NCBI GenBank assembly: GCA_964619675.1
Contig: CAZUEO010000004.1
Coordinates: forward strand, 43,411-107,410
Length of the DNA stretch: 64,000 nucleotides
DNA from: an uncultured Planctomycetaceae bacterium
GTDB lineage: Bacteria; Planctomycetota; Phycisphaerae; Sedimentisphaerales; UBA12454
Direction: 5' to 3'
The notes under the pieces were generated by a model. That model did not search any database and was not told the DNA's origin. It saw only the letters and a program-made list of their open reading frames with translations. The translations under genes were made by a program, and so were the position numbers. Of this stretch, positions 12,016 through 56,002 are shown piece after piece. Numbering within the stretch: position 1 is the stretch's first letter; the number at the start of each line of letters is the position of its first letter.

Positions 12016-12085
12016 ACCCCAGTTAGATAGCTAAAGCATCACCAAGCAGCTAACTAACGCATCTAACGGGGCAAGCGGGGTAAAC
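12016..12085. repeat. Palindromic element, family CCCCG(T/A)(T/G)AGA...TCT(A/C)ACGGGG ending GGGGTAAAC
   Basis: Left arm ACCCC(A)GTTAGAT 12016-12028, right arm ATCTAACGGGGC 12061-12072, then AAGCGGGGTAAAC. Confidence 0.75.
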
Positions 12086-13243: not shown

Positions 13244-13293
13244 ACCCCGATGAGATAAATCTCGCCTGCGGGCGGACATCTCACGGGGTAAAC
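13244..13293. repeat. Second copy of the CCCCG..AGAT/ATCT..CGGGG-TAAAC palindromic element
   Basis: ACCCCG(A)TGAGAT 13244-13256, ATCTCACGGGGT 13278-13289, then AAAC. Internal cgcc-tgcg-ggcg hairpin. Confidence 0.75.
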
Positions 13294-25829: not shown

Positions 25830-26288
25830 ATGAGAAAGAGAAATGGTTTTACACTGGTTGAAATTTTGATAGTGGTGATTATTCTGAGTATTCTGGCTGC
25901 GATAGTAATTCCGCAGTTCAGCGGTGCGAGCGAGGAGGCAAAATTGGCGAGTTTAGTGAGCGACCTGCAGACAATCCGTTCGCAGATTCAGCTTTACAAA
26001 GCTCAGCACAATCATGGCACTACCTGTCTACCAGGAACGGTGTCCGGTGTTGATTTCGAAAATGCGATGACGAAATACACGGTGAAGGCAGGTACACTGG
26101 CTGCCACGCAGGCTCCGGGCGATGGTGTTTATGGTCCTTATCTGCTGAAGATACCGCGAAATCCGTTTGATGATGTCAATAGTGTAGTTGAAGGTACAAG
26201 TACGCCTGACGAAGCCGGCGGCTGGTATTACAATACAGATACAGGTGCGTTTAATGCGAATGACGACGCCACACACACCGGTTATTAA
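25830..26288 (+). CDS. Type IV major pilin / GspG-like pseudopilin, copy 1
   Basis: Class III leader MRKRNG|FTLVEILIVVIILSILAAIVIPQF with E+5. Confidence 0.9.
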   Translation: MRKRNGFTLVEILIVVIILSILAAIVIPQFSGASEEAKLASLVSDLQTIRSQIQLYKAQHNHGTTCLPGTVSGVDFENAMTKYTVKAGTLAATQAPGDGVYGPYLLKIPRNPFDDVNSVVEGTSTPDEAGGWYYNTDTGAFNANDDATHTGY

Positions 26289-26516: not shown

Positions 26517-26975
26517 ATGAGAAAGAGAAATGGTTTTACGCTGGTTGAGATTTTGATAGTGGTGATAATTTTGAGTATTCTGGCCGCGATAGTAATTCCG
26601 CAATTCAGCGGTGCCAGCGAGGAAGCAAAATTGGCGAGTTTAGCGAGCGACCTGCAGACAATCCGTTCGCAGATTCAGCTTTACAAGGCTCAGCACAATC
26701 ATAGCCCTGCCAGTCTGCCGGGAACGGCACCCAGTGTTAGTTTCAAAGATGCGATGACAAAATACACAGAAAAAGATGGAACACTGGCTGCCACGCAGGC
26801 TCCGGGCGATGGTGTTTATGGTCCTTATCTGCTGAGGATACCGGACAATCCGTTCAACGATAGTAACGACGTGTCTCTTGGAGCTGAAGCAGGAGACGGT
26901 TCCACAGGCTGGTGGTATAGCACTACAACTGGTGCATTTAAGGCAAACGACAATGAAGAACACGCCGGTCTGTAA
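26517..26975 (+). CDS. Type IV major pilin / GspG-like pseudopilin, copy 2
   Basis: Same leader as copy 1. First 62 aa differ at one residue, C-terminal segments diverge. Confidence 0.9.
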   Translation: MRKRNGFTLVEILIVVIILSILAAIVIPQFSGASEEAKLASLASDLQTIRSQIQLYKAQHNHSPASLPGTAPSVSFKDAMTKYTEKDGTLAATQAPGDGVYGPYLLRIPDNPFNDSNDVSLGAEAGDGSTGWWYSTTTGAFKANDNEEHAGL

Positions 26976-27032: not shown

Positions 27033-27458
27033 ATGGTAAAAGCGACTATAAAAAATGAGGCTTTTACGCTTGCTGAGGCACTGATAGCCCTTGTAATTCT
27101 TATGATAGCTGCAGCAGGACTGATTCTGCCATTTGCATCAAGCACTGTGGTCGGCCAGCAGGGCTGCAGTCAAACAATCGCAGCAAAGCTTGCATCCGAC
27201 CGGATTGAACGGATTATCGCAGACCCTAATTATTGGTCCGCAGGCAGCTATAACGAGCCGAAAGGGCAGGTAAAGGATGCAAATGGTATCATTTTTATTG
27301 ACCCGATGTATGCGGATTTCAGCAGAGAAACAGTTTGTGAACAGGTTTATATGCCGCAGCAGGGTGCTTTTGGAACGCCAAATTTTATCAGGATAACGGT
27401 CAGGGTATATCAAAATGACCTTAAACTTGCCGAAATTACAAGGCTGAAAAGCAAATGA
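27033..27458 (+). CDS. Minor pilin, PilV/GspI-like
   Basis: KNEA|FTLAEALIALVILMI; position in the cluster. Confidence 0.8.
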   Translation: MVKATIKNEAFTLAEALIALVILMIAAAGLILPFASSTVVGQQGCSQTIAAKLASDRIERIIADPNYWSAGSYNEPKGQVKDANGIIFIDPMYADFSRETVCEQVYMPQQGAFGTPNFIRITVRVYQNDLKLAEITRLKSK

Positions 27459-28096
27459 AACAGAGGAAGAATAGGTATAAGGGTTTTACACTTGCCGAAC
27501 TGCTGATGACAGTGTGGGTAATGAGTATAATTCTCACTGCCGTAGCGATGTTATCTTTTGCTCTCGGCAGTGCAAATGATTCTGCGGATGATACGTCCCA
27601 GATTCAAAGCAGAATCCGCTATACGACTATTTATCTGGGCGGGCTTGTAAAAAACAGCAAGCTGATATGCGCAAAGTTCAGCGATAGCGTGGCAATATGG
27701 CAGGCAGATTACAACGGCGACAGCCAGATAGACCCCAATGAAATAGTTTATATTGATAGCGGCGGCGGCAATAACTATATAAAGCTGATTAGTTTTAGTC
27801 TCCCCGTTGCGGCTGCCTCGTTTCCGAAGACTCTCGATTCAATCGGAAACGGTCAGGCAAGAACGTGGCTCGCGGCCAATTGCCAGAACAGTTCTATTAC
27901 CCTTATAGACAATTGCAGTTATGTAGATTTTACGACAGACCTGCAACCGCCTTTTACAAAAAGGTTAAATATCTTTTTTGGCGTTAATAACAAAGGCAGC
28001 GTCGAAAATTATCAGATAAGTGCGTATCTGCGATGTCAGGCAGGTTATCTGCTCGACGGCAGCGGTCAGATTGTTTCAAGTGACGACGATATGTAA
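27455..28096 (+). CDS. Minor pilin, PilW/GspJ-like
   Basis: RYKG|FTLAELLMTVWVMSIIL. Confidence 0.82.
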   Translation: MKQRKNRYKGFTLAELLMTVWVMSIILTAVAMLSFALGSANDSADDTSQIQSRIRYTTIYLGGLVKNSKLICAKFSDSVAIWQADYNGDSQIDPNEIVYIDSGGGNNYIKLISFSLPVAAASFPKTLDSIGNGQARTWLAANCQNSSITLIDNCSYVDFTTDLQPPFTKRLNIFFGVNNKGSVENYQISAYLRCQAGYLLDGSGQIVSSDDDM

Positions 28097-29687: not shown

Positions 29688-30263
29688 ATGACAGGAAACG
29701 GACAATATAATTTGCCGGTTTTTACCCCGTTAGAAACAGACGGGCATAACTGCCGGCTGTCAGGAAACCATTTGGCGAGATGGAATATTTTGTTTCTGAC
29801 GGGCTTTACGCTGGTAGAGCTATTTATTGTATTGATAGTGCTCATCATCTTGGCCGCGATTGCCGTGCCGTTATACACCTCGGCAGGTTCAGTCCAGGTA
29901 AAAACCGCTGCGAATATGATTGCGTCCGACCTTGAATATGCAAAGAGCATGGCAATGAGCACGGGCAGAAATTATTCGGTGGTTTTTGATGATTCCGGCG
30001 AAAACTACAAAATAAATGACGCAAATGGCCAGGTAATACCTCATCCTGTGCATATTGGAGCCAGCGAAGGTTACACTATAAGTTTTGTGGACGACGGCAG
30101 ACTCGACAAAGTTGATATTGTAAATACGACTTTCGCAGCAAATACCGTCGAATTCGATTATCTCGGAGCGCCTTGTGAAGGCGGCCTGATACAGTTGCAG
30201 GCTGAGGGTTATACATTGACGGTCAAAGTTGAGCCTGTAACAGGATATGTAAGCATTGAATAG
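29688..30263 (+). CDS. Minor pilin, FimT/FimU/GspH-like, with an abnormally long leader
   Basis: ...FLTG|FTLVELFIVLIVLIILAAIAVP; AANMIASDLEYAKSMAMSTGRNYSVVF GspH-like motif. Confidence 0.85.
   Translation: MTGNGQYNLPVFTPLETDGHNCRLSGNHLARWNILFLTGFTLVELFIVLIVLIILAAIAVPLYTSAGSVQVKTAANMIASDLEYAKSMAMSTGRNYSVVFDDSGENYKINDANGQVIPHPVHIGASEGYTISFVDDGRLDKVDIVNTTFAANTVEFDYLGAPCEGGLIQLQAEGYTLTVKVEPVTGYVSIE
29721..29809. mobile_element. 84-bp palindromic miniature element inserted in frame in the prepilin leader
   Basis: Arms ACCCCGTTAGAAACA (29724-29738) and TGTTTCTGACGGGCT (29791-29805), 13/15 complementary. TTTAC is repeated at 29721 and 29805. Related intergenic copies at 12016 and 13244. Confidence 0.7.
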
Positions 30264-55728: not shown

Positions 55729-56002
55729 ATAAAGTCTCCGATTGTCAGATATAAAGTGATAATTATACCCTTAATTTTTTGTGGAAAAAGGGAAAAATTG
55801 AGCCTTTACAGGGCGGTTAATCCTAAAAAAATTCAAAAAACTTTGATTTTTCAGCTAACATTTCGGGCAAATGTGCGTCTATAGTATAATAGGGGGGTTT
55901 TTGTAAGTATAGCGTATGTTTGTTTTTCAAAACTTATCCTCGCCCCCGTTTCCACGAGGGTAAACTCAGGCGGGGAAGTAAAATGGATTAAGGAGGCAGG
56001 AA

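Follow-up and report, generated by a model that had tools for sequence, protein, structure and literature searches.

A miniature inverted-repeat element at the prepilin cleavage codons of a planctomycete GspH-like gene belongs to a dispersed family that recurs at these codons in other pseudopilin genes

How does a pseudopilin gene come to have its prepilin-peptidase cleavage codons lying partly inside a palindromic DNA element, and what kind of element is it? The question is raised by the window analysed here, a 64,000-nucleotide stretch of contig CAZUEO010000004.1 (positions 43,411 to 107,410, forward strand; assembly GCA_964619675.1) from an uncultured Planctomycetaceae bacterium, in which a minor pseudopilin gene of the GspH/FimT family carries 84 additional bp in its leader. 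The locus holds a true insertion with terminal inverted repeats and a target-site duplication. The element comes from a multi-copy family with a target preference, which recurs in four pseudopilin families and is otherwise spread as a generalist. We propose, at a probability of roughly 0.78, that a non-autonomous MITE (miniature inverted-repeat transposable element) inserted in the TTTA of the GspH cleavage codons, rebuilt the motif G^FTLVE (carets mark cleavage points and insertion junctions) and lengthened a leader that is discarded. The parts of the locus are as follows; type A is one of two element families described below.

29688 to 30263, + strand: GspH/FimT-family minor pseudopilin gene, 191 aa, with the insertion in its leader (Pfam GspH, homologues and synteny)
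29688 to 29720, + strand: original leader codons M-T-G-N-G-Q-Y-N-L-P-V with the conserved start codon (filled/empty orthologue comparison)
29721 to 29724, + strand: left copy of the 4-bp target-site duplication TTTA, made up of the original Phe codon and the first Thr base (orthologue comparison)
29725 to 29804, + strand: type-A MITE, 80 nt, containing no open reading frame (ORF) itself; its in-frame translation is (T)PLETDGHNCRLSGNHLARWNILFLTG (repeats and family alignment)
29725 to 29739, + strand: left terminal inverted repeat CCCCGTTAGAAACAG, encoding P-L-E-T, with 0 mismatches to the consensus CCCCGTTAGARA
29790 to 29804, + strand: right terminal inverted repeat TTGTTTCTGACGGGC, encoding L-F-L-T-G and giving the Gly at -1; differs at two positions from the consensus TYTCTAACGGGG; the left arm is its pairing partner
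29802 to 29819, + strand: regenerated prepilin-peptidase motif G^F-T-L-V-E (GGC TTT ACG CTG GTA GAG), read from the sequence
29805 to 29808, + strand: right copy of the duplication TTTA, made up of the Phe+1 codon and the first base of Thr+2 and forming the working site (orthologue comparison)

The ORF at 29688-30263(+), whose translation starts MTGNGQYNLPVFTPLETDGHNCRLSGNHLARWNILFLTGFTLVEL, matches the Pfam family GspH with E=9.5e-5 (23.3 bits versus a cut-off of 21). Its 1639 homologues, mostly from metagenome-assembled genomes (MAGs) of Sedimentisphaerales/Phycisphaerae, are named GspH/FimT or prepilin-type N-terminal cleavage/methylation domain proteins; an exact-protein look-up found no identical protein on record. 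The cleavage motif LTG^FTLVELFIVLIVLIILAAIAVPLY fits the pattern G/A^F-T-L-x-E followed by a hydrophobic helix of ~20 residues. This helix, LFIVLIVLIILAAIAVPLY, directly follows the regenerated motif, as in all orthologues, and F40, T41 and E44 are invariant in the GspH alignment.

The palindrome is arranged as an earlier note on this DNA had described it. Its arms (29726-29738 and 29791-29803) pair at 12 of 13 positions across 52 intervening nt, TTTAC occurs at 29721 and again at 29805, a spacing of 84 nt or 28 codons, and the Gly(-1) codon GGC (29802-29804) falls within the right arm. The duplicated flank is the 4-bp TTTA, the fifth base C belonging to the left terminal repeat on one side and to the host on the other; the 84 bp thus consist of the 80-nt element and a 4-bp duplication. 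Apart from these two arms, the arm motif is matched in the window only with 2 mismatches. Inverted repeats of such quality form 10 clusters in the window versus ~3 in shuffles, which makes the palindrome on its own too weak as evidence. We judge the element to be real because of the comparison with orthologues.

That comparison revealed three classes of GspH N-terminus. In the short-leader class, the leader meets the site directly (MTRNGQYxLP[AG]^FTLVE, e.g. MTRNGQYDLP[AG]); type-A leaders read ...FT[PLE......LTGFT]LVE with variable length and interior, and type-B leaders read ...FT[(H/P)TPI(C/Y)......KLV(W/K/C)GFT]LVE. Type-A elements end in CCCCGTTAGARA and type-B elements in CCCCCACACCAA, and both families sit at the identical nucleotide in GspH orthologues. 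Four loci fetched by exact protein match are syntenic. The start codon and 60 nt upstream are conserved whether the site is filled or empty (compared in the window, L001, L003 and L004), bearing out the earlier claim of a true insertion. The empty site reads GCA TTT AC^G CTG GTA GAG, the filled site of the window TTT A^CCCCGTTAGAAACA...TGTTTCTGACGGGC^TTT A^CG and a type-B filled site TTT A^CCCCCACACCAATTT...AAATTGGTGTGGGGG^TTT A^CG. Both flanks read TTCA in L001/L005 and L205, the pattern that duplication of its own target by each insertion would produce. A terminal-repeat test was run at the GspH site in 70 sequences, namely the window, 66 of the 81 GTDB/Logan loci and three more fetched loci. 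Only recognised filled sites passed, scoring 12-15 where the null distribution had its 99th percentile at 9 and its maximum at 11.5. The original upstream leader codons are intact and conserved in at least 13 filled orthologues, and the window element is 89% identical to the GspH copy of L001/L005.

Moreover, filled and empty states are intermixed in a neighbour-joining tree of the mature GspH proteins. Nearest neighbours differ in state (type B in P0023 and type A in P0006; type B in P0008 and type A in P0022; type B in P0010 and an empty site in P0016), and the window protein is not sister to P0002/P0003 despite their common element subfamily. The interleaving, together with the differing elements of neighbours, points to many independent events at one site.

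Distant GspH orthologues with long leaders (L012-L084, e.g. L033, L038 and L076) have no terminal repeats at the site and were left out of the counted insertions, as old decayed insertions or ORF over-extension. Their leaders take the form M(P/A)xL(T/I)YP...LRGxxGG^FT, and in P0103 a type-A insert is nested after such a leader; such leaders may be native, or may descend from an ancient insertion that has decayed. We also set aside F-I variants, in which the first cleavage site is relaxed, as a sign that the second site is used: they stem from a TCCC...GGGA repeat variant, not from drift.

Other pilin genes carry such inserts at the same codons, as the earlier note had anticipated. BLAST of the elements against all loci recovered further copies in GspG-, GspI- and GspJ-like genes. 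The GspG-like gene of L008 holds a type-A copy whose interior is 84% identical to that of the window element (MRNGFT[PLETNRHNCRQSETPLVKRNILFLTGFT]LVEIL), and the GspJ-like gene of the same locus holds the GspH element of L006 reversed, still open and reading PLE...SLTGFT. A type-A copy in the GspI-like gene of L010 matches the interior of the P0022 GspH element, and type-B copies occupy the GspI-like gene of L011 and the GspJ-like gene of L007. In one further GspH gene (L080), an in-frame copy lies 5 codons upstream of the cleavage site with a CGAA duplication. Overall, at least 10 separate insertions, from two element families and in four pseudopilin families, have struck one 4-bp site, with the motif rebuilt each time.

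The occupancy sample comprised 267 prepilin motifs in 83 pilus-operon sequences (82 loci and the window). Ten of the 267 are filled, with 0 out of frame, as against ~7 copies of equal quality at the ~35,400 other TTNA sites of the same sequences. Each of the 9 pilin-site copies whose duplication is intact is a multiple of 3 and has no stop in frame with the conserved start; at the non-genic rate, the chance of this outcome is ~0.38^9 = 2e-4. The constraint on frame counts in favour of the upstream start, since frame would be irrelevant were translation to begin downstream.

Two side observations concern leaders and the DNA near them. In L007 (13474-13501), a 28-nt type-B hairpin lies in the positively charged N-region of a Sec-like signal peptide, MRRERRKIKVN[PQHQCIGVGV]KGRNFLLLCVIVITVTAAAA, and may be a further, putative insertion into a cleaved leader. 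Minimal elements of 28 nt, in which a 4-nt loop joins two type-B terminal repeats and TAAA is duplicated at the flanks, also sit in the conserved ~400-nt spacer upstream of GspH (L003:6264-6291, L007:9734-9761 and L008:9696-9723).

How the family behaves at large was addressed by a census of metagenome contigs, scanned for the type-A repeat pair only with the flanks unspecified. At least 120 stretches gave 118 evaluable copies; the counts in this paragraph and the next, and those quoted from them later, hold among the matches listed. A perfect 4-bp duplication flanks 78 of the 118 copies (66%), with at most 6 matching at any other k. The duplicated sequence varies (TTTA 25, TAAA 16, TTGA 9, TGAA 7, TTCA 7, TCAA 4 and others, including CGAA), so the fixed TTTAC terminus envisaged in the earlier note has to be given up. 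The target logo of 68 copies, T-T-[T41/C14/G13]-A followed by C33/T22, upholds TTTAC as the preferred target. Positions -1 to -3 show no base preference and no upstream G, contrary to the proposed matching of the target to the Gly codon. Prepilin sites account for 3 of the 118 copies (L097, L142 and L173, all from other lineages), two more such flags being elements that adjoin elements; 34 copies lie in frame within long ORFs and 69 are non-genic. An element matched to pilins is not what this distribution describes.

Genic copies read xPVR(N/D)...ISNGV or TPLE...FLTGF; in the remaining frame the terminal repeats contain TAG/TAA. Pfam confirmed the identity of five of the longest host ORFs: NuoG/formate-dehydrogenase-type molybdopterin oxidoreductase (two copies), DinG-like helicase, UvrB, RtcB and glycogen-debranching enzyme. 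The value of (length + 4) mod 3 is distributed 32:2:0 in genic copies versus 26:20:23 in the 69 non-genic ones (p = 0.68), and the latter avoid stops no better than shuffled interiors do (0.96 versus 1.08). A bias of insert lengths towards multiples of 3 stands for the 9 pilin-site copies and falls away for non-genic ones. Because non-genic copies show neither length bias nor stop avoidance, coding compatibility is a survivorship filter rather than design. Sizes range from 54 to 108 nt, 382 arms occur in 2 Mb, and the hosts are Phycisphaerae/Sedimentisphaerales MAGs and other environmental contigs. With terminal inverted repeats, a fixed 4-bp duplication, small size without a transposase, and dispersed copies with empty and filled sites, the family has the features of a MITE. 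It is a generalist MITE, not a pilin-specific one.

Some census copies adjoin other elements directly, with the junction ...FLTGF^TPLE... (L104:2306-2440 and L184:907-1040); existing copies recreate the preferred target, and in this way may seed clusters. Others lie singly or in pairs, in frame, in housekeeping proteins (L167:2233-2300 and ~40 codons downstream; L102:7246-8457). In one molybdopterin oxidoreductase the Fe4S4 domain is interrupted by such a copy, and a MurG-like protein has another as its N-terminus, MNPVRN...SNGVKILFTGGGTGGH.

Based on these data, we propose the following course of events. A MITE with the repeats CCCCGTTAGARA and TYTCTAACGGGG entered the TTTA of the prepilin-peptidase codons GGN/GCN-TTT-ACN. 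A trans-acting transposase, probably of the DDE type, would stagger its cut by 4 bp and thereby duplicate TTT-A; its class is putative and is taken from the repeats and the duplication, because no autonomous element was found in ~2 Mb. The element end ...ACGGGG, joined to the duplicated TTTA, yields ACG GGN TTT ACN, that is, T-G-F-T, beside the hydrophobic helix; the window junction indeed reads T-G-F-T, as the earlier note had it. In the insertion frame the terminal repeats are stop-free (PLE... and ...LTG), and copies with an open interior, whose length and duplication add up to a multiple of 3, would merely lengthen the leader. Most likely, translation starts at the conserved upstream codon and continues through the insert, after which the prepilin peptidase would cut the 39-residue leader at the regenerated site to release a normal mature pseudopilin. 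Such putative removal is plausible: Gly(-1) is the critical determinant for type IV prepilin peptidases, and type IVb pilin leaders reach ~30 residues. Recurrence would then have three causes, namely that TTTAC is preferred, that insertion there costs little, and that only precise excision would be tolerated afterwards. The insert would be retained because imprecise deletion would destroy the gene. Enrichment beyond ~4-fold plausibly reflects the low cost of leader insertion together with this retention, although true targeting or some benefit may contribute. Most likely, the favoured TTTA(C) target and the GGGG end happen to fit the invariant G-F-T codons of a discarded leader.

Several points weigh against the proposal of a generalist MITE that was read through and removed with the leader. 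It leaves unexplained why about half of the close GspH orthologues are filled, far above GspG/I/J. Enrichment at prepilin sites is ~190-fold, versus ~4-fold attributable to the TTTAC preference, in pilus-operon loci that are a biased sample for enrichment. The neighbour-joining tree was built on ~150 residues. No ORF in the window has the GxGD[VIF]K motif of a prepilin peptidase, and cleavage of the 39-residue leader is a step that we infer. A search of ~2 Mb for an autonomous partner found no repeat pair 0.5-5 kb apart enclosing a transposase; beside 41 solo arms in the same ~2 Mb there was no transposase-like ORF, only ordinary genes, and no cognate enzyme for the element emerged. Finally, the element contains a possible internal start, TTG at 29772 preceded by AGGA, and in L205 (408-530), where GTG is the conserved GspH start, the public annotation begins the gene at an ATG within the element. 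These last observations would suit an insert that is real and untranslated, in which an internal or downstream start (e.g. TTG 29772, giving MARWNILFLTG^FT) turns the element into a new 5' untranslated region, start and leader. The GspJ-like gene at L007:7001-7110 goes further in this direction: the original leader is deleted, the type-B element comes right after the ATG, and its peptide, MTPTPIY...KLVRG^FT, is the entire leader. We nonetheless consider an internal start unlikely, given that none of the 9 intact pilin-site copies breaks the frame or introduces a stop when read from the upstream start, versus 38% multiples of 3 among non-genic copies, and that the upstream leader codons are kept in at least 13 filled orthologues.

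The high occupancy of GspH can also be read as co-adaptation, the idea put forward in the earlier note, whereby target and terminus evolved to match the G-F-T codons of type IV pilin genes and the element hides in leaders that the peptidase removes. Besides the occupancy and the enrichment in Sedimentisphaerales loci (10/267 versus ~7/35,400), this idea draws on the fact that both repeat families end in GGGG, use TTTA and regenerate G-F-T, on the presence in pilus loci of at most one possible in-frame non-pilin copy (L007:13474), and on the prepilin-site copies of other lineages. The census argues the other way, with 3 of 118 copies at prepilin sites against 69 non-genic copies and 34 within long ORFs of unrelated kinds; the lack of preference at -1 to -3 means that the Gly codon goes unrecognised, the duplications vary (TTGA, TAAA, CGAA and so on), non-genic copies show no adaptation of frame or open reading frame, and the L080 insertion lies 5 codons off the site with its CGAA duplication. 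Co-adaptation thus appears quite unlikely. There is a slim chance that the insert is useful and positively selected, its strong 5' mRNA hairpin tuning translation or stability of the low-abundance GspH. Folding predicts a long stem-loop over the window copy (-48.3 kcal/mol, z=-3.6), and repeated independent gains of different elements underlie the unusual GspH occupancy; set against this, the subfamilies have unrelated interiors, the site is empty in many close orthologues, and such folding is common to every MITE. A single-strand hairpin element of the IS200/IS605 (PATE) or REP/RAYT type, inserting 3' of TTTAC, would account for palindromic ends and for a target that recalls TTAC, the target of IS608. 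These systems, however, are not known to duplicate their target on insertion; the perfect 4-bp duplications of variable sequence around 78 of 118 copies rule against this mechanism, the ends are terminal inverted repeats instead of two subterminal hairpins, and no Y1 transposase was seen near the copies, which makes it very improbable. Long leaders in many orthologues could in principle mean that the palindromic leader is ancestral and was lost by short-leader orthologues. With 4-bp duplications flanking the element, two unrelated element types at one nucleotide, and the same elements in other genes and intergenic DNA as hundreds of dispersed copies, the absence of any insertion is barely conceivable.

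Known small repeats offer partial parallels. Rickettsia palindromic elements (RPEs) are small palindromic repeats that interrupt many unrelated conserved genes in frame, are present between genes too, and are tolerated as an extra peptide (PMC10969869, PMC2229807, PMC3184786). The present element likewise lies both in frame in conserved protein genes (34 genic copies, 32 of them multiples of 3) and between genes. RPEs measure ~105-150 bp and are confined to Rickettsia. By contrast, the present family spans 54-108 nt, is found in Phycisphaerae/Sedimentisphaerales as well as other uncultured lineages, and shows clear terminal inverted repeats, a 4-bp duplication and a TTNA(Y) target; a subset lies in a putatively removed leader, a situation for which RPEs offer no described counterpart. 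In its behaviour the element resembles an RPE, but size and host exclude it from that group. Correia/NEMIS, ERIC, Nezha and the Coxiella QMITE have terminal repeats, a duplication, no transposase, multiple copies, stem-loop RNA and occasional in-frame ORF fusions (PMC3184786, PMC10969869, PMC5896051). The element shares with such classical MITEs its repeats, duplication, lack of transposase and empty/filled orthologous sites, but its repeat sequence and target differ (Correia uses TA) and its interiors are highly heterogeneous beneath conserved ends.

A parallel in an export signal is the Yersinia YPAL/RU-2 repeat, which forms part of the predicted signal peptide of YPO1552 (PMC2229807). In both cases a MITE-encoded peptide stands in an N-terminal export signal, but YPAL/RU-2 is a single fusion that putatively makes a new exported protein, whereas the present insertion is recurrent and both duplicates and regenerates an existing cleavage site. 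PATEs and REP/RAYT elements insert without duplicating their target and are marked by subterminal hairpins or a GTAG/CGTC tag (PMC3733652). They resemble the present element in small size, hairpin formation and a short T-rich target resembling the IS608 TTAC, and differ from it in its 4-bp duplication and true terminal inverted repeats. Functionally, though only by analogy, inteins and self-splicing introns are likewise mobile inserts silenced by later removal. Here, removal would be a by-product of the host leader peptidase, and the element encodes no splicing activity. In-frame MITE insertions as such are already known from RPEs, ERIC, BOX, Correia and the Coxiella QMITE (PMC3184786, PMC10969869, PMC2229807, PMC5896051). 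A full-text literature search gave no account of MITEs in prepilin leaders or of peptidase-site regeneration, and the MITE papers found do not describe a recurrent hot spot at a protease-processing motif. What sets the present case apart is one 4-bp protease-motif site struck at least 10 times by two element families in four gene families.

The window gene lies in a pilus-type operon, with GspI/J/K-like minor pseudopilin genes upstream and PilM/N/O and a secretin downstream; it has N_methyl neighbours, and syntenic loci include PilN, PilO, a secretin and a T2SSE ATPase. At the cleavage codons, the window's four other pseudopilin genes have GGT/GCT TTT AC(A/G), and all four sites are unoccupied; they are listed here with a probable relative of the element:

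25830 to 26288, + strand: GspG-like major pseudopilin, unoccupied comparison site GGT TTT ACA (the L008 orthologue carries type A there)
26517 to 26975, + strand: second GspG-like pseudopilin, unoccupied site (read from the sequence)
27033 to 27458, + strand: GspI-like minor pseudopilin, unoccupied site GCT TTT ACG (orthologues filled with type A in L010 and type B in L011)
27455 to 28096, + strand: GspJ-like minor pseudopilin, unoccupied site GGT TTT ACA (orthologues filled with type A in L008 and type B in L007)
12018 to 12071, no strand assigned: probable degenerate type-A-like copy between convergent genes, CCCCAGTTAGAT...ATCTAACGGGG, with no duplication left (end similarity)

The two GspG-like genes (25830-26288 and 26517-26975) are tandem and near-identical, with the first ~40 residues identical. 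Three intergenic relatives had been proposed, and one of them probably holds: 12018-12071 looks like a degenerate type-A copy, and a bona fide copy at L158:7202, flanked by a TTGA duplication, also has CCCCGTTAGAT ends. The second, 13245-13288, belongs to a separate REP-like hairpin family, CCCYGATGAGAT-N11-ATCTCACRGGG then CAAG, with no target duplication, and the third, 55944-55975, was not convincing. The REP-like family is often tandem (L007:9382-9461 and L008:353-425) and has no Rfam match; a hammerhead-like reading of its CUGAUGAG was dropped, as there is no GAAA core and no Rfam match. An attC-like reading of the GTTAGAT...ATCTAAC ends was likewise rejected, the core-site order being opposite to that of attC and a target duplication being present. 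A third terminal-repeat family, CCC[A/G]CACCTTC...GAAGGTGCGGG with ATGAA on both sides, occurs at apparently orthologous positions (L007:19824-19966 and L008:19790-19884). An Rfam scan of the window matched no family. A 41-aa query with the insert peptide gave no word matches in a protein search, and an exhaustive HMMER search with the 30-aa insert gave 6 weak matches, all to long repetitive proteins and uninformative.

For annotation, the inserts cause mis-annotation of the start codons and lengths of pilins in Phycisphaerae MAGs, and housekeeping proteins such as UvrB, RtcB and MurG-like proteins are inflated by PVRN...SNGV or TPLE...LTGF segments, which might be misread as lineage-specific insertions. 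We regard it as doubtful that prepilin leaders are a safe harbour in which the TTTA(C) preference and the ...ACGGGG end are maintained so as to rebuild G-F-T for removal by the host peptidase; in a variant of this idea, the inserted 5' hairpin or the longer leader might be co-opted to tune minor-pseudopilin output. If the safe-harbour idea were true, the element would parallel intron or intein removal at the protein level, with a host enzyme doing the work, and the occupation of about half of the GspH genes in a whole clade would be explained. For the generalist MITE that we favour, if the leader is cut off together with the insert, the locus would be a clean natural case of a transposon insertion neutralised by ordinary protein processing, and would offer a ready-made test of the prepilin peptidase's tolerance for long and arbitrary leaders.

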